Part shown: positions 1 through 24,416 of the stretch, piece after piece | Position numbering within the stretch: the first letter of the stretch is position 1 | Layout of the letters: the number at the start of each line of letters is the position of its first letter | NCBI GenBank assembly: GCA_021824915.1 | Contig: JAKAJP010000030.1 | Coordinates: 1 to 32,290 of the forward strand | DNA: 32,290 bases | Source of the DNA: a bacterium | GTDB lineage: Bacteria > Patescibacteriota > Microgenomatia > UBA8517 | Direction: 5' to 3' | Notes under the pieces: generated by a model | Told to the model about the DNA's origin: nothing | The model's database searches: none | Seen by the model: the letters and a program-made list of their open reading frames with translations, nothing else | Position numbers and translations under genes: made by a program

Positions 1-474
1 AGGTATTTGGTTCCCAGCGCACAGTCCCGGGAGACATTGAATTTTAAGTGCGATGCATTGGCGGGCGCGCAAAACGCATTAAACAAACTTAAGTTACAGG
101 TCTCAAGTCTTAAATCTCAAAACGACAGGACGGTATTATCGGAAGAGAAAAATGAGAAAATTGAAGAATATAGAAAGCAATTTGTGGATGCTTTAGGCGA
201 CGATCTAAATAGCCCTAAAGCTATAGCGATTCTTTGGGAGATGTTGAAAAGCAACATTCCAAGTGGAGATAAATATGATTTGGCGTTGAGTTTTGACGAG
301 GTTTTGGGATTAAAGTTGTCGGAAGGGTTAAAAGAAGTTGAAATACCGGATGAAATAAGAAGATTGATGGAAGAGAGGGAGGAGTTGAGAAAGCGAAAGA
401 AATTTGAAGAATCCGATAAAATCAGAAAGCAAATTGAAGAAGCTGGTTTCAAGGTGAAAGATACGTTGCTTTAA
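1..474 (+). CDS. cysS: Cysteinyl-tRNA synthetase, C-terminal part (runs off window start)
   Basis: DALR-type segment (FVDALGDDLNSPKAIAILWE...FDEVLGL) and C-terminal ER-x(3)-RK-x-K-x-F-x-x-SD-x-IR...G-x-x-VKD motif. Frame is open from base 1. Confidence 0.9.
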   Translation, partial: RYLVPSAQSRETLNFKCDALAGAQNALNKLKLQVSSLKSQNDRTVLSEEKNEKIEEYRKQFVDALGDDLNSPKAIAILWEMLKSNIPSGDKYDLALSFDEVLGLKLSEGLKEVEIPDEIRRLMEEREELRKRKKFEESDKIRKQIEEAGFKVKDTLL

Positions 475-1858: not shown

Positions 1859-2176
1859 TTACAGGAGTTTTTTCAGGCTGAATTTTTTGACCACAATTCC
1901 GATGTGGTCAATTAGGGGAAAGTGGCTTTTTACTTCTTCCTGGAATTTTTCGGCCAAGCCTCCGCTGTATTTACCAAATCCGGATTTTTCGGATTGTTTA
2001 CAGAGTTTATCTTCCCATTCGTGAATAATTTTCAATATTGTTTCACCTTCCTGATTAAATTTTTCTTGGTATTTATCCTCATTTGTTGAATATTCAAAGT
2101 GGGCTTGTGTAAATCTGTCGAAAGCGTCTTTATTTTCCTCAACCATTCGGTTGTAATATTCCCGATACTTTGTCAT
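1859..2176 (-). CDS. Hypothetical protein
   Basis: 105-aa ORF whose start overlaps the stop of the ABC permease gene (ATGA), so likely coupled. Confidence 0.7.
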   Translation of the reverse strand: MTKYREYYNRMVEENKDAFDRFTQAHFEYSTNEDKYQEKFNQEGETILKIIHEWEDKLCKQSEKSGFGKYSGGLAEKFQEEVKSHFPLIDHIGIVVKKFSLKKLL

Positions 2177-2919
2177 ATTTGTATTTTTGAGAAAAGATAA
2201 CTGCCGATGAGAAGAAATACGAATGTAATTACTGAAAGCACAAGCAGATCGAATCCTGTCCCAAATTGAGCAGCTCCTCCCAAAACTCCGCGCAGTCCGT
2301 CAATTCCATAAGTCATGGGGTCGATTTTTGTTGCAATTTCCATCGCTTTTGGTAGACCCTGGATGGGGTAGAGACTTCCTGATAAAAAGAAAATTGGCAT
2401 AACCAGAAAATTCATAATGAGTTGAAATCCCTGCATATCTTCCAGCATAGAAGCGATGGCCGTTCCCAGAGCTGTAAAAAGGAGGGCGATTATAAACATA
2501 AATAAGAGTGCCAGAGGAATGTGATAATAAGTTGTAAATCTGAAACCTACGAATGTGGAAAGAATTAAAACAACAATGCCCTGAAAAGTTGCAACCGTTG
2601 CGCCCCCTAAAGTCCGCCCCAACATAATTGAAAATCTTGAGACCGGAGCAACCATTGTTTCTTTTAAGAAACCGAATTGTCTGTCCCAAATGATTTCAAT
2701 TCCGGCAAAAATCGCAGTGAAGAGAATACTCATTGCAACAATTCCGGGAGCTAAAAATTGGATATAATTTCCTTGACCCGCTCTGGCAAAAACGCCGCCA
2801 AAGCCATAGCCGAAAGCGATTAAATAAAGAAGTGGCTGACCCAAAGATCCGATTATCCGGCTACGGGAGCGGAAGTATTTAACGACCTGTCTTTTCCAAA
2901 GTATGTAAATTTGTTCCAT
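2173..2919 (-). CDS. ABC-2 type transporter permease (DrrB/NodJ-like)
   Basis: About six TM segments, Y-x-x-FLAPGIVAM, DRQFGFLKE...APVSR, FFLSG and DPMTYGIDGLR motifs. Confidence 0.92.
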   Translation of the reverse strand: MEQIYILWKRQVVKYFRSRSRIIGSLGQPLLYLIAFGYGFGGVFARAGQGNYIQFLAPGIVAMSILFTAIFAGIEIIWDRQFGFLKETMVAPVSRFSIMLGRTLGGATVATFQGIVVLILSTFVGFRFTTYYHIPLALLFMFIIALLFTALGTAIASMLEDMQGFQLIMNFLVMPIFFLSGSLYPIQGLPKAMEIATKIDPMTYGIDGLRGVLGGAAQFGTGFDLLVLSVITFVFLLIGSYLFSKIQI

Positions 2920-3720
2920 TTAATGCCGGCCTCCCCAAACATGTCTTCGTTGTCTAAGCGCATCAAGAGCTCCGGCTTCTTCGTTTCTGATCTCGTGGCC
3001 CGTCAAATGTAGAAAAGCTTCTTCGAGGGAAGCGGATTTTGTCTTTTTCTTAAGTGCATTGGGTGTTCCCTCGGCAACAATGTTTCCGTGGTCAATAATT
3101 ACAATTCTGTCCGCGTTTTTTTCTGCTTCATCCATATAGTGTGTTGTAAAAAATACCGTCATTCCCTCCTTTTTGTTTATGTCTTTTAAGTAAGTCCACA
3201 TATGATTTCTGGTTTGGGGGTCAAGGCCTATCGTCGGCTCGTCCAAAAAGAGAATTTTTGGATGGTGCAGAAGGCCACGGGCAATTTCAAGTCTTCTTTT
3301 CATTCCGCCGGAAAATGTTTTAACAAGAGACTTGCTTCTGTCGGATAAATCAACAAATTTTAATAGATCTTCAATTCTCTTTTTTCTGGTATTTACGGGG
3401 ATTGAATATAAAACGGCATGCAGTTCCATGTTTTCCATTGCCGTCAGATCATCATCCAGTGACGGATCCTGAAACACTATTCCGAAACCGCGTCTTACCG
3501 CGTCCTGATCTTGAGAAGGATCTGCCCCATTAACTAATATTTTTCCCGAAGTTGGAGCTAAAAGAGTTGTCAGCATTTTTATTGTTGTTGATTTTCCGGC
3601 GCCGTTCGGACCGAGAAAAGCAAAAATTTCTCCCTTTTCGACACCAAAAGAAATATCATTAACTGCAGTAAACCCATTAAATTTTTTGGTCAGACTTTTA
3701 ACCTTTATTATTTTAGCCAT
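2920..3720 (-). CDS. ABC transporter ATP-binding protein (DrrA-like)
   Basis: Walker A GPNGAGKS, signature FSGGMKRR, Walker B ILFLDEPT, TTHYM. Start placed at ATG 3720 (MAKIIKV), which has TATGAT 6 nt upstream. The ORF track extends to 3768. Confidence 0.93.
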   Translation of the reverse strand: MAKIIKVKSLTKKFNGFTAVNDISFGVEKGEIFAFLGPNGAGKSTTIKMLTTLLAPTSGKILVNGADPSQDQDAVRRGFGIVFQDPSLDDDLTAMENMELHAVLYSIPVNTRKKRIEDLLKFVDLSDRSKSLVKTFSGGMKRRLEIARGLLHHPKILFLDEPTIGLDPQTRNHMWTYLKDINKKEGMTVFFTTHYMDEAEKNADRIVIIDHGNIVAEGTPNALKKKTKSASLEEAFLHLTGHEIRNEEAGALDALRQRRHVWGGRH

Positions 3721-3780
3721 CTGATGATCATATATTATCGTTGTGCTGGAATTCAAGCAATAAATCACTGATAATTAATT

Positions 3781-6098: not shown

Positions 6099-7031
6099 AT
6101 GGAACAAAGGAATTTAGAAGTTGGTGGTAGAGAGTGGGCGTATATAAAAGATAGAGTGCTTGGGAGAGGGAAAATTTACCGTAGTTTAGATGGCACTCAA
6201 TATATGCATACTGGGAGTGTTGCGGAGGTCGGCAATGAAGCGAATTTTATTGAGCAGCTTCATGGTCTTAATTTTCCGGTGCCAAGGATACTTAGTAAGG
6301 GAGAAATCGGAGGAATTAACTACTACATTGAGGAATCAGTTGGGGACATGAGTTTCGGTGAAAAATTTCGCCATGAATACACCTTGCATCAAAAAGTGAC
6401 TGGAGAGACGTTTGAAGGATTTTGCAATATAGCGTGTCAATTCCTGGAAGCGCAATTGAATAATCCAACAGACAGAAGGAGTGAAATAAGGGAAGGGGTA
6501 CATCTATCTAACGTTTTGCAAGAAAATCCAGATCTTAGAGACAAAATTTTCCCATGCATTAGTATGATAGAAACAAATTTGCAACAAATTCCACTCGTAT
6601 TGACCCATGGAGATTTTTCCCCAAGAAATACTTTTACTAAAGGAGTTATTGATTTTGAGCATAGGTTCATTGCTCCCGTCGGTTATGATGTTCTTACGGG
6701 TATAACAATTCAGCGCTTTTGGGATTTTAAGGATAGTGATGGAGAGACTCAGCTTGATTTTGACGTCGAGTCAGGTCAAGTTGCGGATTATTTTAGAAAA
6801 TTAGACAATATCGCTGAGCATTATAAAATAGGGCAATTATCGAGGTTTGCGGATGATTTCGTTGTACTTAAGGCTATTTGGTCTCTTGCTTACGAAAAGC
6901 AATTTGCTAGTCAAACAGGAAACAATTTAAAAAGAAACTTTCGTAAGGCTGTTTTGGTTTATTGTATGGATCAATATATGAATGGCAGACCAGTAGACAC
7001 TAGTAGTTTTAAAAAGTTTGGACAACAATAG
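6099..7031 (+). CDS. Aminoglycoside phosphotransferase / choline kinase-like protein
   Basis: Brenner motif LTHGDFSPRN, metal-binding VIDFE, PVPRIL, and APVGYD after DFE. Confidence 0.82.
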   Translation: MEQRNLEVGGREWAYIKDRVLGRGKIYRSLDGTQYMHTGSVAEVGNEANFIEQLHGLNFPVPRILSKGEIGGINYYIEESVGDMSFGEKFRHEYTLHQKVTGETFEGFCNIACQFLEAQLNNPTDRRSEIREGVHLSNVLQENPDLRDKIFPCISMIETNLQQIPLVLTHGDFSPRNTFTKGVIDFEHRFIAPVGYDVLTGITIQRFWDFKDSDGETQLDFDVESGQVADYFRKLDNIAEHYKIGQLSRFADDFVVLKAIWSLAYEKQFASQTGNNLKRNFRKAVLVYCMDQYMNGRPVDTSSFKKFGQQ

Positions 7032-7057: not shown

Positions 7058-8680
7058 ATGACTAAATTACCAAAGACGATTGAGAATTTATTTTATAATC
7101 CGGAGACGGATTCTGTAGACTCATTACTAAAAGATATTAAGGAGACTCATTTGCATATTTTAGAAAACACGGACTTGTCGAAAGGAACTCTTTCCTCAAA
7201 ACCCGAAGATTATGTGTATGTAATAAAGGATTTTAAAATTCCAAATAACGGAATAGGCCAAGGTTCGTTTGACTCAATTATACCCGCGCTTTTTCGTGGT
7301 GTATCCAGGTGGCACTCTCCTCGAACAATGTATAATGTCGCTCCGCCGCCAATATTACCAACAGTTGTTGGTAAAGTTTTCACTTCACTGTATAACCCAA
7401 ATTTAGCCTTAGACACCGCAGCAGGTAAAAGTCTTTTAACCGAACAGGAAGTAATAAAAGCGATTGCAGATTATATCGGTTGGGATCGAGAAAATGCTGG
7501 TGGAATTTTTACCTGGGGTGGAAAGGCAACAATAATGTATGGTATTAAATTAGGACTAAAAAATTGTTCACCAAATTCTTCTACGCAGGGTGCAAAAGAA
7601 GACGTTGTTGTTCTCTCGACGGTAGCTGGTCATCCATCTCATATACAGGATGCTAATTGGCTGGGTATCGGGACGGACAATGTGATTAGGTTGGAAGTTG
7701 ATAGGGATGGTAAAACGGATGTGAATCAAATGGAACAAGTAATTAAAAAAGTGACCAGAGAGGGTAAAAAAATTGCAGCCATTATTGTTTCAGGAGGAAC
7801 AACCAATAGTATGGTGGTGGATCCAATCGAAAAGGTTGTCGAGTTGAGAAATAGACTTGTAAATGAACTTTCCCTGAAGTATATACCTCATATTCATGTT
7901 GACGCCGTGGTTGCCTTCCCATGGATATTTTTTAAAGACTATAATTTTGGATTAAACAATCTTGATATTGAGGCAGAGGCACTGGAAAGAATATTGAAAA
8001 TAATAAAGGATCTGAAATGTATATATCTGGCTGATTCATTTGGCATAGACTTTCATAAAATGGGTTTTTGTCCTTATATATCAAGTGCCTTTCTCGTTAA
8101 GGACAAAACTCTATTAAGTGGAAAGGAAGACCTTCAAAATTGGCCATTTTTATATTCGATGGAGAATTCTAGAGCTGGTGACGGTCCAAACTCCGCTTTT
8201 ATTGCTTTAAGCGCTTTGGGTGTAAAGGGTTTTCAGGTTTTAATTGCACATTTGACTGAGATGGCGGTGCATTTACAGAATGAGATAGAAAAAACAGGAA
8301 ATTTTGAGATAATAAATAAAACAGGACTCGGAACTTCGGTTATGTTTATTCCACGTATTCCTAAAGGTTTAACTTTCCCAAATTTAGAAATAGAATCGAA
8401 GGTCAGAAATTTTTATACAGCAAGTTTTATCGAAGAAATGTCAAAATTAGGGAATCCTTATTATATTGATAAAATACCCGGCAACTCCACTGGATCCAGC
8501 CCTTTTCCGCTAACATCATTAAAAGCTTACATAATGTCGCCATTTTCAAGCAAAGAAAATAATCTTTCTTTTGTGGAATTTATTGTTGAATTAAAGCGAA
8601 AAATAGATATGAAATTCGATTTTCATAATACAAATATTAAGTCTTCGGATGTTGAATTTTTCCATCCCCTAAAAGGATAA
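7058..8680 (+). CDS. Group II PLP-dependent decarboxylase
   Basis: GIFTWGG, SGGTT, HIHVDA and ADSFGIDFHK(MGFCPY) with the PLP lysine. Confidence 0.88.
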   Translation: MTKLPKTIENLFYNPETDSVDSLLKDIKETHLHILENTDLSKGTLSSKPEDYVYVIKDFKIPNNGIGQGSFDSIIPALFRGVSRWHSPRTMYNVAPPPILPTVVGKVFTSLYNPNLALDTAAGKSLLTEQEVIKAIADYIGWDRENAGGIFTWGGKATIMYGIKLGLKNCSPNSSTQGAKEDVVVLSTVAGHPSHIQDANWLGIGTDNVIRLEVDRDGKTDVNQMEQVIKKVTREGKKIAAIIVSGGTTNSMVVDPIEKVVELRNRLVNELSLKYIPHIHVDAVVAFPWIFFKDYNFGLNNLDIEAEALERILKIIKDLKCIYLADSFGIDFHKMGFCPYISSAFLVKDKTLLSGKEDLQNWPFLYSMENSRAGDGPNSAFIALSALGVKGFQVLIAHLTEMAVHLQNEIEKTGNFEIINKTGLGTSVMFIPRIPKGLTFPNLEIESKVRNFYTASFIEEMSKLGNPYYIDKIPGNSTGSSPFPLTSLKAYIMSPFSSKENNLSFVEFIVELKRKIDMKFDFHNTNIKSSDVEFFHPLKG

Positions 8681-8727
8681 GGTTTGTTTTGCAAGCCTAT
8701 TGTGATAAAATCTCAGCCATAGAACCC

Positions 8728-9963
8728 ATGATAAAACAAAAAACAAATAGCCAGCCTACACAAGTCTTAAGCAGTTTAGAAGAAGCGAGGGTTAATGTAC
8801 CTTTAGAGAACCCCAATTTGCCAATGCCGCTCAAGTTTGAAGTATCAAGGCCTGAAATTATAAAAAAGTCACTAGCGATTAAAGATCTTACTTTACCAAC
8901 TGAAAGTGGGCAGGAAAGAAGCGTTGTTGGAAAGGTTTTTGATCAGGTTGTAGAAAAATTAAAAGAGCATAATTTTTCTGATATTCATATAGTGAGAGGA
9001 AATCCCATTGTTGAAGTAAGAGATAATTTTGATAAACTCCTCTTTTCGCCAGGAAATCCAGGAAGGTCATCAACTTACACTAGGTACACCGATGAGAATC
9101 ATGTATTAAGAACCCACACGTCAGCACTAATACCATCAACTTTTGAGAAATTGGATAAAAAAGATTTAGACCGCTCGACTTTTGTACTCCCAGGCTTAGT
9201 TTATAGAAGAGATGTGATTGATCCTAAACACTTGGACGTGTTCCACCAAATTGATGTATGGACACTTCAGAAAAACAAAAAATACGGAAAGACAAATAGA
9301 AAAGATTTGTTAGAGCTTGTTAAAGCCGTGTTCGAAGCAGCCTGTCCGGGTGCTGAAATGAAAATTAATGAGGTAAAGCACCCCTATACTTTAGATGGTA
9401 TAGAGGTTTATGCGAAAATTGATAACAAAGAGATAGAAGTCCTCGAAGCTGGGTTGGCGCACCCCACAGTGTTAAGTAATTCTGGCATTAATCCTGAAGA
9501 ATACTCGGGTTTGGCTTTGGGTATGGGTGTTGAACGCCTAATCATGGCACGAAAAGACCTACCGGATATCAGGTTAATTCGATCGACAGACCCCCGTGTA
9601 ATTAAACAAATGACGAATATGGAAAAGTATAGGAGTGTCTCTAATCAGCAAGCCATGTCGAGAGATATGTCCTATTGTGTTGAGAAAGACGAAACAGAGG
9701 AAGATATCTGCGAAGCTATTAGGGTTGCGTTTGGGGAGAATAGCGATTTGTTGGAAGAGGTTAAGATTTTAGAGAGAACTCCATACGAAAAATTGACTCC
9801 AATTGCTAGAAAAAGACTCGGTGCATCAAAAGATCAAGTTAACGTTTTGGTAAGAATTGTTTTAAGACATCCCGACAGAAGCTTGACCAAAAGGGAGGCT
9901 GCGGATTTGTACTCCTCTGTTTATCCAAAATTACACCAAGGGTCAACTTTGGGATATGAATAA
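8728..9963 (+). CDS. Single-chain PheRS-like class II ligase with C-terminal FDX-ACB-like domain (PheS-related 'SrmL'-like / mitochondrial PheRS-like architecture)
   Basis: DNFDKL, VLRTHTSA, motif 2 GLVYRRD...HLDVFHQ, motif 3 GLALGMGVERL, PDIRL, then SRDMS...LRHPDRSLT. First ATG is 8728; the ORF track opens at 8689. Confidence 0.85.
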   Translation: MIKQKTNSQPTQVLSSLEEARVNVPLENPNLPMPLKFEVSRPEIIKKSLAIKDLTLPTESGQERSVVGKVFDQVVEKLKEHNFSDIHIVRGNPIVEVRDNFDKLLFSPGNPGRSSTYTRYTDENHVLRTHTSALIPSTFEKLDKKDLDRSTFVLPGLVYRRDVIDPKHLDVFHQIDVWTLQKNKKYGKTNRKDLLELVKAVFEAACPGAEMKINEVKHPYTLDGIEVYAKIDNKEIEVLEAGLAHPTVLSNSGINPEEYSGLALGMGVERLIMARKDLPDIRLIRSTDPRVIKQMTNMEKYRSVSNQQAMSRDMSYCVEKDETEEDICEAIRVAFGENSDLLEEVKILERTPYEKLTPIARKRLGASKDQVNVLVRIVLRHPDRSLTKREAADLYSSVYPKLHQGSTLGYE

Positions 9964-10615
9964 TAATCGGCGTAAGCGTCTAATCACCTTAAGAGAAGCG
10001 TATGAAAAGGAACCTTACAGTGTTAAGCTTAGTGGCCTCAACCTTAGGATAGAAAAAGGTGTTTTTCCTCCTGATGTATCATTTGCTACTCTAAAACTTG
10101 GGAAAATTCTGGGTAACTATCGTCCCGAATCAGCAATAGACATAGGAAGCGGGTCTGGATATCTTGCATTTGTGCTGAAACGAAATGGTGTTCAAAGAGT
10201 ATTTGCAAGTGACATAAATCCGGCCGCAATTAATTGCATAAAAGAAAATGTACGGTTAAATCCCGGCTGTAATCTTAACGGAATTTATTTGAGTGACCTT
10301 TTTAGTAATCTTAAAGAGAACTTAAAGTTTGATCTTATTATCTTCAATCATTTTTACCGTCCCGAAGGAACGGGTATTTTTGGTCCAGTAAACGATGCGG
10401 GAAAAGAGATAATTGAACGGTTTTTGACACAATCAAAACAAAGATTAACTCAAAACGGTGTCATTATTATGAACTTTGTTGAGATGTCTGATCCTGAGAA
10501 TAGCCCGGCAGCAATTGCGAAGCAGATGGGTTATAAGGTGAAAGTATTATTCCAAGAGAGTAACTATCAAAATATGGGTAATTTCTTTGTTTACGAATTT
10601 AAACTGCCAAGTTAA
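9956..10615 (+). CDS. Class I SAM-dependent methyltransferase (HemK/PrmC-like fold)
   Basis: GVFPP, IDIGSGSG, SDINPAA, SDLF, KFDLIIFN. Overlaps the ligase stop by 8 nt. Confidence 0.85.
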   Translation: MNNNRRKRLITLREAYEKEPYSVKLSGLNLRIEKGVFPPDVSFATLKLGKILGNYRPESAIDIGSGSGYLAFVLKRNGVQRVFASDINPAAINCIKENVRLNPGCNLNGIYLSDLFSNLKENLKFDLIIFNHFYRPEGTGIFGPVNDAGKEIIERFLTQSKQRLTQNGVIIMNFVEMSDPENSPAAIAKQMGYKVKVLFQESNYQNMGNFFVYEFKLPS

Positions 10616-10616
10616 T

Positions 10617-12068
10617 TTATCGGCTAATATACTCATCTAGCTTGATAATTGAAGGCAATTTAATCTTGTCTTCTTTGTGAGTTTTATTATAGAAATCCTC
10701 TGCAATCTTTTCGTACATCATTGAGTATATTCTGATGGTCAGTTTCTGGTCATCAATGGTCGAGAGTCTGTCTAATTCTTCCTTGATAACTCTTTCACCA
10801 GCACAAGCTTTAATAAAACTTTTAAACAGATCTTTCGATGTCAAAGTTCCGGTCTCATAGGCGTCAGTAAAGTACCATCTATTAGATTTTTCACCTAATA
10901 AGGGGTGTAACATTTGCCTTAAATCGATGTTGTGCCCTAAAGCCACTTCATCATTTTTTATCAATTGCCACTGTTGTAATGCACCTTGATGTATATCAAA
11001 GTACACAGACGACATTCTTCCTCCGTACTTATCGTGTGCGTATTCTGTAACTTCGGGATTATATTTTGTCAAACGAGGCGCAAATGTAGAATAATTGACA
11101 ATAAAAGTAATTAATCCAATCTGGTTGTTGTTTTTGTCTCTTAATTTTAGGTAAAAATGAAAATCAAGTTCGGTGTTTAATGCTTGTTTGGGGATATTAG
11201 CCACATCATCATTATTCTTATTTTCAACAAGCTTTCTCAAGGATTTATAGCTACCAGCCTTAATATATTCTTCTACTCTCAAGATATAGGGCATAGAAAT
11301 TTCGATAGTGTCAATATTTCCCCTTGCCATTTTAAGATACCAAGCTACCACATCGATATAGTGATAGCTTGTGTGAGAGAGTGTGCCAACCCCGTCAATG
11401 TGTCCGTGCGCGCCACCCTTAAGATATTCGCTTGGATATTTATGAATTCCCCCGTTGATTATAACGTTCATATATCTAATTCCTTCACCAGTCTTTAAAT
11501 ATATTTTATTTAACCCATCTGCTACTTTGATAAAAGGGATTAGCGCTCTTCTTCGAAGGGGAGAGCAAAACATGTAGTTTTTATTTTCCTTTTTGATTTT
11601 GTCATATAATAAATTTAATTTTTCATATTTTTTCTGAATTGACCGAGCTTGATTTATATCTAGAGAGCTATTCATATTGGTAACTAAAGGTTTATCACAA
11701 AGTAAATTTATTTTATTTTTAAGTGCCCATTCGCAGTAAAAATAGTGATGAACAGGGTCTGTCGCAACAATTACCGCATTAATTAGCTTTTTTATATTAA
11801 GTTGATCTAATTCGTATTGTAGTTGGTCGGGTGATTTTCCAGACGTATCAATCCATTGTGGGTTATCTAGTTCTAAAATCTTTTTGAGGTTGTCACGTAT
11901 TTCCTGTTTTTCTGTATCCCTTGGATTAACCGGATCACAGATCGCCACGACTTTTACATTCATGCCCTCTGATTTCAGACTAAGAATCGAGGAATAATGA
12001 TTCTTTTCAGTCCACAAGCCACTACCACCGGCAACAAGAATGTTTATTGTTTTAGAATTCATTCCCAT
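10617..12068 (-). CDS. Gfo/Idh/MocA-family NAD(P)-dependent oxidoreductase
   Basis: N-terminal Rossmann ILVAGGSG, VVAICD, AVIVATDPVHHY, LLCDKPL, and GTLSHTSYHYID (H-x-x-D catalytic region). Confidence 0.8.
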   Translation of the reverse strand: MGMNSKTINILVAGGSGLWTEKNHYSSILSLKSEGMNVKVVAICDPVNPRDTEKQEIRDNLKKILELDNPQWIDTSGKSPDQLQYELDQLNIKKLINAVIVATDPVHHYFYCEWALKNKINLLCDKPLVTNMNSSLDINQARSIQKKYEKLNLLYDKIKKENKNYMFCSPLRRRALIPFIKVADGLNKIYLKTGEGIRYMNVIINGGIHKYPSEYLKGGAHGHIDGVGTLSHTSYHYIDVVAWYLKMARGNIDTIEISMPYILRVEEYIKAGSYKSLRKLVENKNNDDVANIPKQALNTELDFHFYLKLRDKNNNQIGLITFIVNYSTFAPRLTKYNPEVTEYAHDKYGGRMSSVYFDIHQGALQQWQLIKNDEVALGHNIDLRQMLHPLLGEKSNRWYFTDAYETGTLTSKDLFKSFIKACAGERVIKEELDRLSTIDDQKLTIRIYSMMYEKIAEDFYNKTHKEDKIKLPSIIKLDEYISR

Positions 12069-12134: not shown

Positions 12135-13565
12135 TTAGAAAAGTTCGTTTTGGTCAGCTTTGACTTCAGCCCTTTTGAAAGGGTTTATTTTATCCGTTGG
12201 TAGTTTTAGCCCCTTGCCTTCAAACCACTCCTTTACTGAAAGTAGTTGTATTTTGGGGAAAGATGTTGATTCAGAGTATCTATATTCTCCGGCTAAAGCA
12301 GCTTCTCTTTTCATCTCGCTTGTAGGTTCGTGTAATGTTATTAAAACTCCCATAGGCGCACTATCCCTTTCAATATCTCCCTTGAGCGTTGAAACTTCAT
12401 TCCGGTGGTTTGTGTTTCCGCCCTTAACTTGAACAATAATCTTTTTGAGCTTGGGATTTCTTAAATCTTCTCTATCATAAAAAAGGATAATTCCATCAAT
12501 ACCCCTGTCTGCGCCTTTCTTTGTCTCACCACTTGGGGGGCTGGCCCCAACAAGAGTTATTGCCCAATCTTGAAATGAAAACTTATCTTTTTCAGCCAAA
12601 CTTACTGCTGACTCAAAATCCATTGGTATTCCATCGAGATGTATTTGTATTCCGGGGTAATGAGCATTCATTCTTTGGTTTATAACATTTACTGCTTGCA
12701 TACTAATGTCTATCCCAGCCCAGTTTCTGTTTAATCTTTCGGCGACTGCAACCGTAGTTCCGCACCCACAAAACGGGTCTAAAATCCAATCACCCTCTTT
12801 AGATGAAATTTTGATTATTCTTTCGAGGAGTTTTTCGGGTTTTTGTGTAGGATAATCCAATCTTTCTTTATCCATAGGGTTTAAAGCTGGTATTTCCCAG
12901 ACATCCATAGGAATTTTGTAAATATCATTTGCACCAATCCTTGCCCCTTTGGGATTTTGAGCTCTTTCCATAGCTTTTTCTGTTCTTTTATCAGGGTCGG
13001 CCATTGGGTCAAAATGATAATCATCAGTTTTTGTGTAGAAGAGAATAATGTCGTGTTTTTTTGAATAATGCTGTTTGCTAGCTCCTCCAGTTTGATAATG
13101 CCATACAATTTCATTCCTGAAATTTTCCTTTCCAAAAATCACATCCATAATGATTTTTAGATAATGGCTTGCCGTCGGATCGCAATGCAAATATATTGAC
13201 CCGGTTGTTTTCAAAACGCGATGAAGAGGCATAAGTCTTGCAGTCATATTGACCAAATAGGCCATCATTTGGTTTTGACCGATAAATTCTGAAAGGCTGT
13301 TTATAAGTATGGCTATTTGTGGTTTTGGATTGTTTTTTAATTCGTTAAATATCCTTACTGTATCTTCCGTCCATTCCCAAGTATCCTCGAAGGCGTGAAT
13401 TTGGGCTGAGGAATCAATCTGACCTTCCTTGAAAAGTACGTTGTAGTTACGGTTTGAATTGAATGGGGGATCAAGGTATATTAAATCAAAGAAATTTTCA
13501 GGGATTTTCTCTTTCAATACCTCTAAGTTATCTCCAAAAAAGAGAGTTCTGTTTTGAATATCCAT
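12135..13565 (-). CDS. Amino (N6-A/N4-C) DNA methyltransferase, beta class, fused to a C-terminal Mrr-like endonuclease domain
   Basis: GDNL, DLIYLDPPF, YPTQKPE, ILDPFCGCGTT. The C-terminus has GADRGIDG...IVQVKGG (Mrr-type D...QxK). The ORF track opens at 13571. Confidence 0.9.
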   Translation of the reverse strand: MDIQNRTLFFGDNLEVLKEKIPENFFDLIYLDPPFNSNRNYNVLFKEGQIDSSAQIHAFEDTWEWTEDTVRIFNELKNNPKPQIAILINSLSEFIGQNQMMAYLVNMTARLMPLHRVLKTTGSIYLHCDPTASHYLKIIMDVIFGKENFRNEIVWHYQTGGASKQHYSKKHDIILFYTKTDDYHFDPMADPDKRTEKAMERAQNPKGARIGANDIYKIPMDVWEIPALNPMDKERLDYPTQKPEKLLERIIKISSKEGDWILDPFCGCGTTVAVAERLNRNWAGIDISMQAVNVINQRMNAHYPGIQIHLDGIPMDFESAVSLAEKDKFSFQDWAITLVGASPPSGETKKGADRGIDGIILFYDREDLRNPKLKKIIVQVKGGNTNHRNEVSTLKGDIERDSAPMGVLITLHEPTSEMKREAALAGEYRYSESTSFPKIQLLSVKEWFEGKGLKLPTDKINPFKRAEVKADQNELF

Positions 13566-13660
13566 ATTCAATTGCTACAAACAGTCCCAATATAGCAGAA
13601 CTATAAAAATGCTACAAGGAGAAGCTGGTCTATCAGTCCCATTTAGCCTAGCCTTGGGGT

Positions 13661-16233: not shown

Positions 16234-16414
16234 AATTAAAGTTACTTTTGAACAGGTGGAATTGAGTAAGGAGGAGTTAAAAAATCGCATTGATTCCATT
16301 TTTGATATTTTGTTTGAGGAAATTGTGAAGTCGTCAGTACGGCCAAATAAGAATATTTCTATAGATCGCGTGGATGGCGGGAGGGAGGTGAATGAACAAA
16401 TATGCCTAAGTTAA
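16226..16414 (+). CDS. Small hypothetical protein
   Basis: 62-aa ORF with an AGGAG SD. Overlaps both neighbours. Confidence 0.55.
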   Translation: MAKIKVTFEQVELSKEELKNRIDSIFDILFEEIVKSSVRPNKNISIDRVDGGREVNEQICLS

Positions 16415-16815
16415 TTTTCAAAAAAAGAGTAGTTCCGGATGCGGGGAAAATAATGACCCATTTGGTCTCAGTTGGCGAAGTGGAGAACCAGTTTTACAAC
16501 CCAAAAGAGCAAAGTGAGGATAAAAAGACGCAGTTGGAATGGATTTTTGAGTACACGGACAAGCCGGGAATGCAAATACGGCTTTGGTCTACCAAAAGTC
16601 TATCAACTTACAAGGGTAAGAAATCCAAAGCTCTAACTATTACTGAATCCTTGCTGGATAAAGAACTGACTGATGAAGAAAAAGAAAGTTTTGGAGATAC
16701 CGATCAGTTGGTTGGACGAAAGTGTTATCTAACTGTTAAGCACGAGAAGAAAGATGACGGTCAGATTTACGCAAAAGTAGTTGATTTTGAAAGCGAATCA
16801 GGAATTCCCTTTTAA
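16402..16815 (+). CDS. Putative phage-type single-stranded DNA-binding protein (OB-fold-like, acidic IPF tail)
   Basis: Beta-rich, LVGRKCYLTVKH...YAKVVDF, ends ESESGIPF. Strong GGAGGTGA SD; sits directly upstream of the primase. Confidence 0.6.
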   Translation: MPKLIFKKRVVPDAGKIMTHLVSVGEVENQFYNPKEQSEDKKTQLEWIFEYTDKPGMQIRLWSTKSLSTYKGKKSKALTITESLLDKELTDEEKESFGDTDQLVGRKCYLTVKHEKKDDGQIYAKVVDFESESGIPF

Positions 16816-16822
16816 CTTTCAT

Positions 16823-16851
16823 TCCGGGCGTAACTTCAAATTGCGCCTGGA
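16823..16851 (+). promoter_or_regulatory. Intergenic RNA hairpin upstream of the primase gene
   Basis: TCCGGGCGTAA-(7 nt loop)-TTGCGCCTGGA: 11-bp stem with two G-U pairs and no U-tract. Confidence 0.5.
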
Positions 16852-16865
16852 GACGAGAGCTGAAT

Positions 16866-19202
16866 ATGGCTAATCAAGATACTACTACAAATAAGATTTT
16901 GGAGCAAGCTTTGTTCCTATCTGAAAAGATGGGGTGGAGCATAATTCCTGTGGGAGCCGATAAGAAACCATTGATTGAGTGGAAAATCTATCAAAACCAA
17001 AAAGCAACTCCCGAGCAGGTTAAAGAATGGTTTTCAGAGCCAGGTGTTAATTTGGGGGTTGTTACCGGCAAGATATCAAATTTGGTAGTCGTAGACATTG
17101 ATATTAGAAGTGGTGGTACAGATGAGGATTTTAAGGGAGTTCAGACGGTTAAATCTAAGACTGGGGGTGGTGGCTGGCATTACTATTTTAAATTCGAGGA
17201 AGGTTTACAGAATCAGGCGGGGATAAGACCGGGAATTGATATTCGAGCCGAAGGCGGCTATGTGGTAGCACCTCCATCAACCCATAAGTCGGGTAACTTA
17301 TACGAGTGGTTAAGAGCGCCCGTGGACGCGGAAGTTGTAGAACTACCAAATTTCGTTAAAGAGTGGATAGGTAATGTCAAAAGTAAAGATGGTTCTAAAG
17401 AAAGTAAATGGAATAATAAATTACTCGGTGGTGTTTCTGAAGGTAATAGAAACGATGCTGCCGCCTCCGTAATTGGTAAGTGGCTTAAACGTTACCCGGA
17501 GGAGGAATGGGATGAAGTTTGGTCAATGGCGCTTCTTTGGAATAAAGATAATAAACCCCCACTACCTGAAGAGGAGTTGCGGACCGTTTTTGAATCAATA
17601 GTCAAAACTGAAAAAGCAAATGAAGGAGAGGATGATGACAGTCCGGGGAGGCGGACTGTAGCGGATAAAATAGTTGATTTGGTTTTGGAGCTAAAAGCTG
17701 AACTATATTTGGATCAGACAGGAGAACCTCATATTACTTTTCCAGAAAAGCCCGTTGTTGGCTTTCCCATAAAAAGCTCCGTATTTAGAAGGTGGATTAG
17801 TGGTAAGTTTTGGGAACAATACGAAAAGGGATTTTCTGGAGAAAGCTTCCAACAGGCGGTAAGTAGTATTGAAGGAAAATCATTCCATGAGGGAGTAACA
17901 AAAAGTCTTTATAACCGTGTTGCCAGAGTTGATGGTGTAATTTACTACGACTTAGGAGATGATGCGCGGGTTATAAAGATAACAAAAGAAGGTTGGGAAG
18001 TAACTACTAAATGTCCGGAGAAGTTTAGAAGATTTAGTCATCAACTGCCTCAGATTGAGCCTAAAAAGGGCGGAGACGTGTTGAAAGTTTTGGAATATCT
18101 TAACCTCAAAACAGAAACAGACAAACTGCTTTTCATAACATATCTTCTGACAGTCTTTATTCCTGATATACCAAGAGTGGTTTTAATTAACATTGGGGAT
18201 CAGGGCGCGGCCAAAAGTACTGCCTTAAGAATTATCAGAAGTTTGGTGGACCCAAGCATTTCAGAACTCTTAAGTCCTCCGTCGGATATTAACGAACTAG
18301 CTCAGGCATCAAATCATCATTATTGTCTGTATCTGGATAATCTTTCATACCTCCGTGACGAGCTATCTGACGCTTTGTGTAGGCTTGCTACAGGCATAGG
18401 GTTTACGAAACGGAAACTGTTTACCAATGATGAGGACGTGTTGTTTACCCAGAAGGCTGCGGTTGGGATTACAGGAATCAACCTGGTAGCCCAACGAGCG
18501 GATTTACTAGATAGATGCTTGATATTGAGTTTTGAACGAATTCCCGAGGATATGCGAATAGATGAGGAAGACTTTTGGAAGAATTTCAACAACGATAAAC
18601 CACTAATGTTAGGTTCTATTTTTGACAAGTTATCACTGCTTTTGGGGATGGCACAGGAATTTAAGTTGGCAAGAAAGCCCCGAATGGCGGATTATGCCAA
18701 ATATGCTGCGATTGGTGCCTTAACGCTAGGTAAGAGTCCTGAAGAGTTTCTAACTGCCTTTGGTGAGAATATAGAAAGGCAGAACCAGGCGGCAATTGAT
18801 TCATCCCCAACAGCTCAATCTATTTTGAAATTCATGAGTGACAAAGATAGTTGGAGCGGTCCGAGTACGGAACTACATAAGCTTCTTAAAAGCATAGTTG
18901 AGGCAGCTAACTTGCAAATAGGGGGTTCTGAAGGCTTTCCTAAATCTTCCAATTGGCTTTGGAAGCGAGTAATGCAAATACGTCCCAACTTATTGTCTTT
19001 GGGTATAAGTGCCTCTAAATCCGAAACAATAGAAGGTTCAGAAATAAATCTCAAAAAAGGTGTCCAGGAAGAGAAAAATACTGCCATTACTGCCAATACT
19101 GCCACTGAAGTGAAAGACATGGCAGCAGTGGCAGTAGAACAGGGGACTTTGGAGGGAGTCTCAACCTTTAGTTCAATTCCCGGATTGGAGGATTACAAAT
19201 GA
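16866..19202 (+). CDS. Bifunctional primase-polymerase with PriCT-like domain and C-terminal P-loop helicase-like domain
   Basis: NLGVVTG, VVDID, KTGGGGWHYYF, DIRAEGGYVVAPPS; EGNRND and WN...PPLPEEEL (PriCT-1); Walker A GDQGAAKST, LYLDN, DLLDRC. Confidence 0.9.
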   Translation: MANQDTTTNKILEQALFLSEKMGWSIIPVGADKKPLIEWKIYQNQKATPEQVKEWFSEPGVNLGVVTGKISNLVVVDIDIRSGGTDEDFKGVQTVKSKTGGGGWHYYFKFEEGLQNQAGIRPGIDIRAEGGYVVAPPSTHKSGNLYEWLRAPVDAEVVELPNFVKEWIGNVKSKDGSKESKWNNKLLGGVSEGNRNDAAASVIGKWLKRYPEEEWDEVWSMALLWNKDNKPPLPEEELRTVFESIVKTEKANEGEDDDSPGRRTVADKIVDLVLELKAELYLDQTGEPHITFPEKPVVGFPIKSSVFRRWISGKFWEQYEKGFSGESFQQAVSSIEGKSFHEGVTKSLYNRVARVDGVIYYDLGDDARVIKITKEGWEVTTKCPEKFRRFSHQLPQIEPKKGGDVLKVLEYLNLKTETDKLLFITYLLTVFIPDIPRVVLINIGDQGAAKSTALRIIRSLVDPSISELLSPPSDINELAQASNHHYCLYLDNLSYLRDELSDALCRLATGIGFTKRKLFTNDEDVLFTQKAAVGITGINLVAQRADLLDRCLILSFERIPEDMRIDEEDFWKNFNNDKPLMLGSIFDKLSLLLGMAQEFKLARKPRMADYAKYAAIGALTLGKSPEEFLTAFGENIERQNQAAIDSSPTAQSILKFMSDKDSWSGPSTELHKLLKSIVEAANLQIGGSEGFPKSSNWLWKRVMQIRPNLLSLGISASKSETIEGSEINLKKGVQEEKNTAITANTATEVKDMAAVAVEQGTLEGVSTFSSIPGLEDYK
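19080..19136. repeat. Iteron-like array: three direct ACTGCCA-nn 9-mers plus two inverted copies (candidate origin)
   Basis: ACTGCCATT ACTGCCAAT ACTGCCACT ... ATGGCAGC AGTGGCAGT. TACTGCCACTG (19097-19107) is the perfect inverse of 19126-19136. Confidence 0.6.
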
Positions 19203-21691: not shown

Positions 21692-21883
21692 ATGGAAGAA
21701 TTTTACACAACAAGACAAATTGGAAAGATGCTTCATGTTAAAGCCATTACCATAAGGCGTTGGATATCTAAAGGCGATTTACCCGCACTTTTCTTTGAGA
21801 AGGAATATAGAGTAATAAAATCGGATTTTGATAAATTTATTCAAAGTAAAAAAGTTCAAATAAAGAAAGGAAAGGGTAAATAA
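21692..21883 (+). CDS. Excisionase-like HTH DNA-binding protein
   Basis: FYTTRQIGKMLHV-x-x-x-TIRRWI-x-x-GDLPA...YRV-x-x-SDFDKFI, a MerR-like Xis fold. Immediately upstream of the recombinase. Confidence 0.85.
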   Translation: MEEFYTTRQIGKMLHVKAITIRRWISKGDLPALFFEKEYRVIKSDFDKFIQSKKVQIKKGKGK

Positions 21884-21886
21884 AAA

Positions 21887-23503
21887 ATGTTGGTGGCTAC
21901 TTACAAAAGGGTTTCAACAATGCGTCAGGAAAATGAGCAGACCATTGAGAATCAGACAATGGCTATTAAAGAGTTTGCTGATAAGAATGGCCACACAATT
22001 ATCAAGGAATATCAAGATGATGGTTGGAGCGGGACAATTCTTGCCCGCCCAGGACTCGATGGGCTTCGGATTGATGCTAAAAAGAAAGTTTGGGAGGCTG
22101 TAATCATCTATGATCCGGATAGAGTTGCCCGTAAGTATTCCTATCAGGCTTTAGTAATTGATGAGCTTGAAGAAGCAGGAATAAAAGTTCTTTTTGTTAC
22201 AACCCCTCCGGCCCTAACAGAAGAGGATCGTTTACTTTATGGAGTGAAAGGTTTGTTTGCCGAATATGAAAGAGCCAGAATTGCTGACCGCTTCAGGCTT
22301 GGCAAATTAAGAAACGCACGCGAAGGAAAAGTGGTAACTAGCGCTGCCCCATATGGCTATAACTACATTCCCAAACAAGGGAGTGTTCACGGACATTTTG
22401 AAATAAATAAACAGGAAACAATTGTGGTCAGGATGATCTTTAAGTGGGTTGGTGAGGAAGGTATCACAATGATGACTGTAATTAAAAGGCTTCATGAAAT
22501 GGGAATTCCCCCGAGAAAAGGTAAGAAAGAAACATGGAGCACTAGTACCCTTACATCGCTTCTGAGAAATGAGACTTACATTGGGTTGGCACACTATAAC
22601 AGTTCCTATGCTGTTGTTCCTCAAAACCCGCTAAAACACGATAAATACAAAAGGGTGAAAAAGTCGAGTAGAAAAATGAGACCGCGTGAAGAGTGGATAT
22701 TTATTCCAGTACAGTCAGTTATTGATAAAGAATTATTTGAAAAGACTCAAAAACAATTAAAACTTAATTATGAGCTTTGCCAGAGGAACAAAAAGAACGA
22801 CTATCTTCTGGCACAAATGATGTATTGCGTTTGTGGTAGAAGACGAACCGGTGAGGGACCACAAAAGGGTAAGCATCTATACTATAGATGTACAGACAGA
22901 ATTTATCATTTTCCGCTTCCCCGTAAGTGTAAAGAGAGAGGAGTTAATGCCAGGATTGCGGATGATTTGGTTTGGAGCAGGGTTAAAAAGTTTATGACCT
23001 CACCCGATCTAATTAAGGAACAGGCTAAAAGGTGGGTAGGAAAAAAGAAGGGTGAACTTACAAACTCCCATGAATCAATAGATGACCTTAAGTTTGAGTT
23101 GGAGAAAATTAAAAAAGAGGAACAAAGATATATAAAGGCTTATGGAGCGGAAATGCTTACGATTGAACAGCTTAACGAGACGATGGGGGATTTGAGGTTG
23201 AGAAGGTCTATTTTAGAAAAGAGAATCAAGGATATGGACGATAGTTCGAATTCTATGGAAATTAAACTTCCAAATGATGAACAAATAGAAGAGTTTTGCA
23301 AGCAGGCATTAGATAAATTGGAAGGCTTGAGTTTTGAGGGGAAACGGGGGATACTAACGAAGGTATTAACCAAAGTCATAGGAACCCAAAAAGAATTAAG
23401 GGTTTTAGGTTATTTACCAATAGAAAACAACCAAAATGTCGAGTTCAAAACTGAGTGTCGGAATTGTAGGGCTACCGAATGTGGGGAAGTCTACCCTGTT
23501 TAA
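21887..23503 (+). CDS. Large serine recombinase (integrase), integrated-state form
   Basis: YKRVST (catalytic Ser), DDGWSG, RPGLD, DRVAR, PYGY, zinc ribbon CVCG...YYRC...C, coiled coil. Overlaps ychF by 68 nt. Confidence 0.95.
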   Translation: MLVATYKRVSTMRQENEQTIENQTMAIKEFADKNGHTIIKEYQDDGWSGTILARPGLDGLRIDAKKKVWEAVIIYDPDRVARKYSYQALVIDELEEAGIKVLFVTTPPALTEEDRLLYGVKGLFAEYERARIADRFRLGKLRNAREGKVVTSAAPYGYNYIPKQGSVHGHFEINKQETIVVRMIFKWVGEEGITMMTVIKRLHEMGIPPRKGKKETWSTSTLTSLLRNETYIGLAHYNSSYAVVPQNPLKHDKYKRVKKSSRKMRPREEWIFIPVQSVIDKELFEKTQKQLKLNYELCQRNKKNDYLLAQMMYCVCGRRRTGEGPQKGKHLYYRCTDRIYHFPLPRKCKERGVNARIADDLVWSRVKKFMTSPDLIKEQAKRWVGKKKGELTNSHESIDDLKFELEKIKKEEQRYIKAYGAEMLTIEQLNETMGDLRLRRSILEKRIKDMDDSSNSMEIKLPNDEQIEEFCKQALDKLEGLSFEGKRGILTKVLTKVIGTQKELRVLGYLPIENNQNVEFKTECRNCRATECGEVYPV

Positions 23504-24416
23504 CGCCTTACTCAAAAAACAACAGGCCTATGTGGCCAATTTTCCTTTTGCCACCATTGAACCCAATGTTGGAGTTGTTCCGGTTCCTGACGAGCGGCTT
23601 GAGAAATTAGCAGCGATTTATCATTCACCGATTGTTCCTGCGACAGTTGAGTTTGTTGACATTGCCGGTCTAATTGCGGGAGCGTCGAAAGGTGAGGGGC
23701 TTGGAAATAAATTCTTGAGTCATATTAGAGAAACTTCGGCTATTTGTTTTGTCTTACGTGCCTTTAGTGACCCGGATGTTATCAAACAAGGAGTTAAGGA
23801 TCCGAAGACTGATTTTGAGGTACTTAAGTTGGAACTTGATTTGGCTGATGCAGAAACTATCGAAAATCATAAGAAAAAGAAAAATCCGGATGAGGGCGAA
23901 CTTCCTTTGTTTTCCAAGAAACCCTTTCTTATTGTTCTGAATGTTGATGAAGGGGATCTCAAAAAATCAATTGAGATAGAGGAAAAGTATTCAAATGAAC
24001 TCTCGGTGGGTAAAGACCAAATTGTCGTAATTTCGGCTAAAACCGAAAGCGAACTTTCGGAACTTTCCGATGAAGATCAAAAAGCTTATCTTGCCGATCT
24101 TGGTGTTGAAAAATCCGGCCTTGAGCGGCTTATTCAAAAAGCCTTTAAGACCCTCGGGCTTATAACTTTTCTGACGGCCGGGGAAAAAGAGGTCAGGGCG
24201 TGGACTATAAAATCCGGAACTAATACCCAAACAGCTTCCGGTGAAATCCACACGGATTTTGTTAAAAAATTTATTAAGGCAGATGTTTGCGACTTTAATG
24301 ACTTTGTTTCTCTTGGTGGCTGGAAAGGTGCCCGGGAAGTAGGAAAGGTGAGAAGTGAGGGGCGCGATTATACAATGTGTGACGGTGACGTGGTTGAGTT
24401 TAAGATTGGAGCCTAA
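23436..24416 (+). CDS. ychF: Ribosome-binding ATPase YchF (Obg family) with element-supplied N-terminus
   Basis: GIVGLPNVGKST, NFPFATIEPN, DIAGL, GEGLGNKFL, NVDE, and a TGS domain ending DGDVVEF. Confidence 0.96.
   Translation: MSSSKLSVGIVGLPNVGKSTLFNALLKKQQAYVANFPFATIEPNVGVVPVPDERLEKLAAIYHSPIVPATVEFVDIAGLIAGASKGEGLGNKFLSHIRETSAICFVLRAFSDPDVIKQGVKDPKTDFEVLKLELDLADAETIENHKKKKNPDEGELPLFSKKPFLIVLNVDEGDLKKSIEIEEKYSNELSVGKDQIVVISAKTESELSELSDEDQKAYLADLGVEKSGLERLIQKAFKTLGLITFLTAGEKEVRAWTIKSGTNTQTASGEIHTDFVKKFIKADVCDFNDFVSLGGWKGAREVGKVRSEGRDYTMCDGDVVEFKIGA
23456..23467 (+). repeat. attR core (shared GGAAT at 23460-23464)
   Basis: TGTCGGAATTGT versus attL TGTTGGAATAGT. Confidence 0.75.

Follow-up and report, generated by a model that had tools for sequence, protein, structure and literature searches.

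What does a synthetase-like protein do when the residues that hold its amino acid have been exchanged across a whole family? The question is raised by srmL, an open reading frame (ORF) at 8728..9963 on the forward strand of a 32,290-nucleotide (nt) stretch of patescibacterial DNA (contig JAKAJP010000030.1), which was analysed over its whole length and is called the window here. A preliminary description, made from the letters of this DNA, had taken the product for a single-chain paralog of phenylalanyl-tRNA synthetase (PheRS) with an altered amino-acid pocket on a mobile element, and had pointed to the family SrmL for it. The safest statement from our sequence comparisons is that the window gene is a member of the SrmL family and is neither PheS nor a mitochondrial-type PheRS. 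Judging from its residues, SrmL may be a stand-alone amino-acid-activating ligase that is probably RNA-dependent and has a specificity other than phenylalanine (Phe), a reading that we hold with moderate confidence.

Family assignment of the window gene

The ATG start gives a product of 411 residues; an in-frame TTG at 8689 is an alternative start and would give 424. The product matched the NCBIfam model NF051887, "PheS-related mystery ligase SrmL", at 389.7 bits (cutoff 300, E 1.2e-116), the match covering model positions 8-349 of 349. The other models stayed below their cutoffs: mitochondrial PheRS (TIGR00469, pheS_mito) gave 136.8 bits against 258.35, bacterial PheS (TIGR00468) 105.5 bits against 237.45, and the PylRS and SepRS models 16.4 and 15.3 bits against 178 and 381, respectively. 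A search of 1.84 billion cluster representatives returned 3056 relatives at E<=1e-3, of which 830 reached E<=1e-10 and 106 reached E<=1e-30; the last are clusters at 50% identity, and part of them are mitochondrial-type PheRS. SrmL was the top match for all 26 close relatives that were scanned, and 18 of the 26 reached its cutoff. Among 14 representatives with an FPFT loop, 12 passed the mitochondrial PheRS cutoff and two passed neither cutoff.

A tree was built from an alignment of 77 rows, comprising 8 sequences of the window subclade, 51 other SrmL sequences, the 14 FPFT representatives and 4 bacterial PheS chains. It comes from an IQ-TREE quick search run without bootstraps and rooted on the four PheS chains, with three long rows flagged. 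All 59 SrmL rows form a single clade (SH-aLRT 100, stem 0.96), apart from mitochondrial-type PheRS and PheS, and its nearest outgroup is mitochondrial-type PheRS. SrmL constitutes a lineage of its own that descends from the monomeric, mitochondrial type of PheRS. The hidden Markov model search and phylogeny against PheS, mitochondrial PheRS and SrmL that had been proposed at the outset thus place the gene in the SrmL clade; profile score, signature motifs and tree all agree, and the name first suggested was right.

The family has been curated and named by NCBI, and the window copy is a new member of it. In the ESM Atlas, the commonest phylum of clusters named SrmL is Actinomycetota, and one cluster is named phenylalanyl-tRNA synthetase, with Pseudomonadota as its commonest phylum. 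Our literature searches on SrmL and on PheS-related ligases found no paper on the family. A term search found no PheRS terms in PMC9437257 and two mentions in passing in PMC5388404.

These scores bear on a first alternative, namely that SrmL is a working monomeric PheRS which charges Phe onto tRNA-Phe and is kept on mobile DNA as a bypass copy, for example one that a natural PheRS inhibitor or a Phe analogue does not affect. Against it, the PheS score is less than half of its cutoff and the mitochondrial PheRS score is little more than half, and a long stem lies between SrmL and working mitochondrial-type PheRS. With the residue and distribution data given below, we consider a bypass PheRS improbable.

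Domain architecture and predicted fold

The chain begins its recognizable part with a class II PheRS-type catalytic core (residues 62-295, 8911..9612, forward strand), assigned by alignment to PheS chains and by Pfam tRNA-synt_2d (PF01409, E 2.6e-37). An FDX-ACB-type C-terminal domain follows (residues 305-403, 9640..9936, same strand), assigned by PF03147, by alignments and by fold match. Its Pfam score was just under threshold (E 4.7e-06, 27.4 bits against a gathering score of 31.1). An AlphaFold2 model built on a family alignment of 58 sequences had a pLDDT of 95.0 and a pTM of 0.91, and its best matches in the Protein Data Bank (PDB) were full-length human mitochondrial PheRS structures (5mgh, TM score 0.71; 3cmq, 0.66). 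Bacterial PheS chains matched the core only, with TM scores of about 0.5. Because the modeled fold matches full-length mitochondrial PheRS, the two-domain architecture appears to be upheld despite the sub-threshold FDX-ACB score. By sequence and predicted fold, one chain is shown to combine a class II catalytic core with a ferredoxin-fold domain of the anticodon-binding type. This is the mitochondrial-type architecture claimed for the single-chain paralog in the preliminary description.

No domain beyond these two, and hence no editing module, was found in SrmL by the Pfam, NCBIfam and fold searches. When the C-terminal domain alone was compared with PDB sequences, no PheRS match was obtained. 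A PheT-like protein was found neither among the scanned window ORFs of at least 100 residues nor in the 20-kb srmL loci examined, in line with the earlier remark that pheT is absent nearby. The model was less similar to the open, tRNA-bound state of mitochondrial PheRS (3tup_A, TM 0.53) than to the closed, inactive state (0.66-0.72).

Residues of the catalytic core

Residues were compared in a column table of the 77-row alignment (SrmL, n=59; mitochondrial-type, n=14; PheS, n=4); the motifs discussed here lie on the forward strand. Motif 2 (...GLVYRRDVIDPKHLDVFHQID), which with its loop ends in FHQIDVW (residues 156-178, 9193..9261), and motif 3, GLALGMGVER (residues 261-270, 9508..9537; A263, G265 and R270 kept), are intact in the srmL product. 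That both motifs are intact and fused to an FDX-ACB-like domain, as had first been noted, is borne out by alignment, Pfam and fold. R128-T-H130-T-S132, G156, H173, Q174, E237 and G242 are common to SrmL, mitochondrial-type PheRS and PheS, and the motif-2 arginine R160 and the motif-3 arginine R270 each occur in 59/59 SrmL rows. The class II core contacts, comprising the motif arginines and the residues facing ATP and the alpha-amino group, are present (R160, R270, H173, Q174, D176, E237 and T129-H130-T131-S132). Because the adenylation residues are conserved, amino-acid activation by SrmL is likely. D162, D165 and H168 of the motif-2 loop, the loop which in PheRS meets the CCA end, are also kept in all three groups.

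In PheRS, the two phenylalanines of the FPF loop stack their rings on the Phe substrate, and Thr251 and Ala294 form the floor of the pocket. With Klebsiella PheS numbering, FPFTEPS falls at 248 and GFAFGMG at 292, which fits T251 and A294. Pairwise alignment to the bacterial PheS chain 6p8t_C places the HPYTLDG loop of SrmL (residues 218-224, 9379..9399) on FPFTEPS and FHQIDVW on FHQIEGL. The 77-row alignment agrees, so the two replacements noted earlier (HPYTLDG for FPFTEPS, FHQIDVW for FHQxEG) are confirmed by both. His218 replaces the first pocket Phe in 51/59 SrmL rows and Tyr220 the second in 56/59; Phe stands at each of the two positions in 13/14 mitochondrial-type and 4/4 PheS rows. The altered pocket is therefore a family-wide change and not a quirk of the window copy. 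The floor residues T221, A263 and G265 are unchanged in all three groups.

Other exchanges surround this pair. Glu is replaced by Asp176 in 57/59 SrmL rows, and Asp is also found in 8/14 mitochondrial-type rows. Specific to SrmL are Gly to Val, Ile or Leu at 177 (V177 in the window copy), Leu to Trp178 (58/59), Ser to Gly224, Gly to Glu240 (55/59), Asn to Arg161 (51/59), Tyr to Lys276 in the motif-3 helix (59/59), and DTF[YW] to Y-T-R-Y at 117-120. From the table we derived a family signature consisting of the His-Pro-Tyr-Thr loop, Asp-x-Trp after HQ and the Lys in the motif-3 helix. The window copy carries H218, Y220, T221, D176, W178 and K276 of this signature, whose frequencies in the family range from 51/59 to 59/59.

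For a bypass PheRS, the core thus speaks on both sides. All adenylation residues are kept, the floor (T221, A263, G265) is identical to that of the E. coli-type PheS, and His and Tyr in the pocket are still aromatic; both ring-stacking phenylalanines, however, are replaced across the family.

The anticodon-binding domain

According to passages of PMC7540514, human mitochondrial PheRS recognizes G34 of tRNA-Phe through Asp364, Phe366, Ser375 and Arg414, and the D364G mutation abolishes aminoacylation by this enzyme. The chain numbering of 3cmq_A puts D364, F366 and S375 exactly on D, F and S. In the window SrmL, E349 pairs with D364 and T351 with F366 in both pairwise alignments, and N372 pairs with S375 in the gapped pairwise and the multiple alignment. 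At these columns the mitochondrial-type representatives have D in 13/14, F or Y in 13/14 and S in 13/14 rows. The SrmL rows outside the window subclade (n=51) have S23/D5/G5 at the first, T26/W8/I3 at the second and N38 at the third. The rest of the domain is conserved in SrmL (R312-D313-x-S315, E343, R376, R380, T385-L-T387), and it contains a conserved 12-residue insert, L356-S367, which is absent from the mitochondrial type.

Since the domain is otherwise conserved and the G34-contact residues are exchanged, it appears to be under selection, yet with its site for reading tRNA-Phe replaced. This replacement argues further against a plain PheRS function. All three equivalents of D364, F366 and S375 are replaced in SrmL, and D364G alone kills charging in the human enzyme (PMC7540514).

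Proposed function of SrmL

We propose the following course of events. SrmL would first bind ATP and an alpha-amino acid and form an aminoacyl-adenylate. The amino acid would be one other than ordinary Phe, of about the same size and more polar (for example hydroxylated, aminated or hetero-aromatic), because the ring pair has become His/Tyr and the pocket mouth has changed from Glu to Asp, Gly to Val and Leu to Trp over an unchanged floor. In the last and least certain step, the 3' end of an RNA would receive the activated amino acid, and this RNA would not be recognized in the way that is normal for tRNA-Phe. We favor an RNA acceptor because both the motif-2 loop and the C-terminal domain have been kept under strong constraint, and one not read like tRNA-Phe because the residues for reading G34 have given way to others that are also conserved.

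Several observations weigh against this proposal. The pocket of SrmL is still aromatic and its floor unchanged, so it is compatible with Phe. The likeness of the model to the closed state means that the C-terminal domain could be a lid and not an RNA reader. The assignment of the G34 contacts is less secure at S375, which an ungapped alignment tail pairs otherwise; R414 is unmappable, and 5/8 rows of the window subclade have the similar Glu for the G34-binding Asp. The roles given to the ring-stacking pair, the Thr/Ala floor and the motif-2 loop are transferred from the PheRS structural literature. No conserved partner gene was found, since no neighbor family occurs in more than 10 of the 35 loci compared, and no tRNA gene consistently adjoins srmL in 38 loci or is present in the window. 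We regard the resemblance to the closed state and the lack of a linked tRNA as the main points against it.

A further observation counts against catalysis itself. In PheRS, the Phe of FHQ stacks on the adenine of ATP. Pro replaces this Phe in 39/51 SrmL rows from outside the Candidate Phyla Radiation (CPR), and the invariant His of motif 1 is lost in SrmL (N110 in the window copy, variable elsewhere). Both would suit a non-catalytic regulatory or structural pseudo-synthetase that binds only a ligand or RNA. The arginines of motifs 2 and 3, invariant in all SrmL rows, the retained H173, Q174, E237 and G242, and the Phe of FHQ kept in 8/8 rows of the window subclade make such a protein very unlikely.

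Genes next to srmL

The window srmL lies in a run of genes on the forward strand. The first gene (6099..7031) encodes an APH-fold kinase (Pfam PF01636, E 2.9e-09). The second (7058..8680) encodes a group II decarboxylase dependent on pyridoxal phosphate (PF00282); its relatives in the PDB include decarboxylases for DABA, Glu, CSA (CSAD) and aromatic amino acids. After srmL comes a small methyltransferase of the MTS/HemK type (9956..10615, from ORF call and profile searches). The kinase and decarboxylase genes are 26 nt apart, the decarboxylase and srmL are separated by 8 nt (TTG start) or 47 nt (ATG start), and srmL overlaps the methyltransferase gene by 8 nt. A GFO/IDH/MocA-type oxidoreductase (PF01408) is encoded on the reverse strand at 10617..12068, convergent with the run.

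Such an arrangement would suit a tRNA-independent ligase, in which a small molecule with an amine or alcohol group, or the side chain of a protein, would intercept the adenylate, as happens with other synthetase paralogs. In the window, the kinase, decarboxylase and oxidoreductase would then furnish its acceptor or its amino acid; the role left to the C-terminal domain would be that of a lid or a protein-binding module. Besides the tight same-strand spacing of kinase, decarboxylase, srmL and methyltransferase, the closed conformation of the model and the lack of a dedicated tRNA are in keeping with it. We compared neighbor families in 35 loci by our own ORF calling and blastp single-linkage clustering. 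Near srmL, members of the decarboxylase, kinase and oxidoreductase families turn up again in varied orders (loci L001, L004, L005, L022 and L032), with the oxidoreductase in three loci, including L001 and L004, and the kinase in three, including L004 and L022. Amino-group transfer enzymes occur as well: L004 has an IlvE-type transaminase gene (353.6 bits, cutoff 279) that overlaps the stop codon of srmL, and a HisC/CobD-like aminotransferase, below cutoff, is encoded near srmL in L022.

The wider comparison speaks against a tRNA-independent ligase. The decarboxylase is found within 8 kb of srmL in 6/35 loci, and in 4/19 of those that extend 4 kb or more to each side; 29/35 loci have none of these neighbors, and the plasmid copies stand alone. 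All six decarboxylase-linked srmL copies, in varying gene orders, fall in one 11-row subclade, in which the transaminase of L004 and the aminotransferase of L022 are found as well. The methyltransferase was seen beside srmL in none of the other loci compared. Most srmL copies are isolated, either surrounded by housekeeping genes or located on a plasmid, and the frequent neighbors are housekeeping genes of close relatives (an AddA-like helicase, gyrB, thrS, L32, nusB and gatB). ABC ATPases near srmL were discounted, because the cluster concerned takes in ABC ATPases of every kind. The small ORFs that precede srmL, in two families of three loci each, had no Pfam match and, on reading, no carrier-protein serine motif.

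The synthetase paralogs that left tRNA, namely HisZ, AsnA, EpmA/PoxA and GluQRS, are not known to have an anticodon-binding domain. Like these and like the amino acid:carrier-protein ligases, SrmL is a stand-alone, patchily distributed paralog of a synthetase core; unlike them, it keeps the anticodon-binding domain, and both this domain and the motif-2 loop are constrained. A tRNA-independent ligase is therefore unlikely in our view, and the neighbors, which had been expected to give a handle on function, proved a poor one. The kinase, decarboxylase and methyltransferase may make or use the amino acid of SrmL, in one subclade only.

Distribution and mobility of the SrmL family

The window copy belongs to a tight subclade of Patescibacteria, with 67-77% identity across classes among the 119 clusters listed besides its own. 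It has 73-77% identity to SrmL copies named Nomurabacteria, Jorgensenbacteria and Minisyncoccia, with the Patescibacteria group also among the nearest names. The best matches to YchF of the host, with 77-84% identity, bear the names Woesebacteria or Patescibacteria. These identities suggest that srmL moved between Patescibacteria classes.

The window SrmL shares with NF051887 the HPYTxxG loop, HQxDxW and the G-x-G-x-[DE]-R motif 3. Its subclade differs from other members in having an extra conserved N-terminal stretch of about 45-60 residues (the model match begins at residue 61), Phe instead of Pro in FHQ, and GMGVER instead of GxGLDR. Its gene, like those of other NF051887 members, stands alone, occurs patchily and is found on DNA that is mobile or, in the window, likely to be so.

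When 185,579 species genomes were scanned for two exact peptide patterns, only 34 loci were returned; most record titles name a Patescibacteria lineage, a few say no more than "bacterium" and one is labelled Pseudomonadales. The last is a CPR-type SrmL (L027:10001-11194, 61% identity) on a long branch and on a 574-kb contig, which points either to a wrong label on the bin or to transfer of the gene beyond Patescibacteria. Two genomes with a CPR-type copy have a second, divergent SrmL paralog (L004:3543-4655, 370 residues; L015:8809-9924, 371 residues), with the loop HPYTINGLE, PHQMDVW and motif 3 GMGLDR; both pass the SrmL cutoff. The decarboxylase-kinase-oxidoreductase block of L004 lies between its two paralogs. 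A bypass role as PheRS would hardly account for such pairs within a single genome.

SrmL-type genes were also found on plasmids and in a phage. In Glutamicibacter nicotianae, a plasmid carries one between the tet(33) region and a cmx efflux gene (L035:8977-10095); a shortened copy is located between erm(X) and tet(65) on a plasmid of Corynebacterium diphtheriae (L037:9001-9636), and an Azotobacter chroococcum plasmid has another among insertion sequence elements. A 634,780-bp record of an uncultured phage contains a 359-residue SrmL-type ORF (L038:8010-9089, 36.6% identity), with no tRNA gene within 8 kb of it. With plasmid and phage copies, few loci and paralog pairs, srmL appears to be an accessory, autonomous gene. 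No fusion forms were seen among proteins of 721-2055 residues, which is weak evidence, the longer representatives having no extra Pfam domain; PADLOC gave no defense-system match for SrmL.

The plasmid copies would suit a bypass PheRS. Plasmid-borne copies of IleRS bypass mupirocin, and both actinobacterial plasmid copies of SrmL lie beside resistance genes. A passage of PMC5388404 lists natural toxins against PheRS and describes resistant aminoacyl-tRNA synthetase paralogs that spread horizontally.

A putative mobile island in the window

The window starts with cysS (1..474) on its left flank, and ychF (23436..24416) stands on the right of the putative island. Between them is a large serine recombinase gene on the forward strand (21887..23503; Pfam Resolvase, Recombinase and Zn_ribbon_recom; phrog_95 integrase, E 3.8e-93), whose product is likely, from its domains, the integrase of the island. 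A replication module on the same strand (16402..19202) consists of a phage-type, NGO0469-like replication-initiator ORF (16402-16815, below cutoff) and a primase-polymerase gene (16866-19202). A fusion of a DNA N6/N4 methyltransferase with an Mrr-type restriction nuclease domain is encoded on the reverse strand at 12135..13571, adjoining the srmL cluster, and profile searches found a DrrA/DrrB-type ABC exporter pair on that strand at 2173..3768. G+C is 0.34-0.40 at 6-16 kb and 0.42-0.45 at 24-32 kb. The stretch with srmL is likely, on these sequence features, a mobile element, and it has the look of horizontally acquired DNA in a Patescibacteria (Woesebacteria-like) genome. The mobile element of the preliminary description thus has in its favor the recombinase, primase-polymerase, initiator-like ORF, methylase-Mrr gene and low G+C; the attachment sites that would bound it were not found in the window, where only short weak repeats were seen. 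No Rfam family was found in the window, and a promoter and terminator scan gave counts equal to those of shuffled sequence.

A 21-nt inverted repeat, 81% complementary, has one arm just after cysS (505-525) and the other just before the recombinase gene (21804-21824); it may be due to chance or related to the island ends. The 3' end of the recombinase gene overlaps the ychF ORF by about 60 nt, and homologs suggest that ychF starts a few codons downstream of the listed ATG. Three large forward-strand ORFs (3781-5799, 13981-15813 and 19910-21652; 672, 610 and 580 residues) gave no more than sub-threshold matches in Pfam, NCBIfam or PADLOC and none of significance in PHROGs. On the reverse strand, 29181-29879 encodes a 232-residue homolog of release factor 1 (RF1 model positions 103-337 of 347, below cutoff) without the N-terminal domain, for which the L31 gene directly upstream leaves no room. 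A 290-residue HisRS-type protein (31127-31999, reverse strand; hisS 300.9 against a cutoff of 286.75) apparently has no C-terminal anticodon-binding domain, and an EamA transporter gene follows it immediately.

Comparison with known synthetases and significance

Of the known systems, mitochondrial-type PheRS (TIGR00469; human FARS2, 3CMQ and 3TUP) is like SrmL in its two-domain single chain (TM 0.66-0.72), its adenylation residues and its motif-2 loop, and differs in that SrmL has HPY for FPF, E, T and N for the G34 contacts, and the 12-residue C-terminal insert. Bacterial PheS/PheT (TIGR00468) has a homologous core of about 30% identity (6p8t_C, E 3.3e-25). Unlike it, SrmL has no PheT in the window and no N-terminal coiled coil, and carries its anticodon-binding-type domain in cis.

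PylRS and SepRS are other synthetases that arose from a PheRS-like class IIc core and serve non-canonical amino acids. They set a precedent for re-tooling a PheRS-type core to a new amino acid and a new tRNA. SrmL might be a fourth functional branch of the PheRS/PylRS/SepRS type, a mobile and self-contained synthetase that would load a non-canonical, Phe-sized polar aromatic amino acid onto a tRNA recognized by a rebuilt anticodon site. Its charged tRNA would be used in recoded translation or would enter a natural-product or envelope pathway that depends on tRNA, and the kinase, decarboxylase, transaminase and oxidoreductase clusters of one subclade would supply or consume the amino acid. We regard so specific a role as speculative and rather unlikely; unlike PylRS, SrmL has no linked tRNA gene comparable to pylT and no conserved biosynthetic partner genes.

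As far as our literature searches show, the residue table, the swaps of anticodon-reading residues, the Patescibacteria subclade, the paralog pairs and the enzyme link limited to one subclade are new. A change of amino acid together with RNA target is rare among synthetase lineages; PylRS and SepRS, two that underwent it, underlie much of the work on genetic-code expansion. The SrmL family is widespread and is carried by plasmids and phages. If SrmL should instead be an inhibitor-insensitive PheRS, it would matter for PheRS drug programs, as copies travel beside resistance genes on actinobacterial plasmids.

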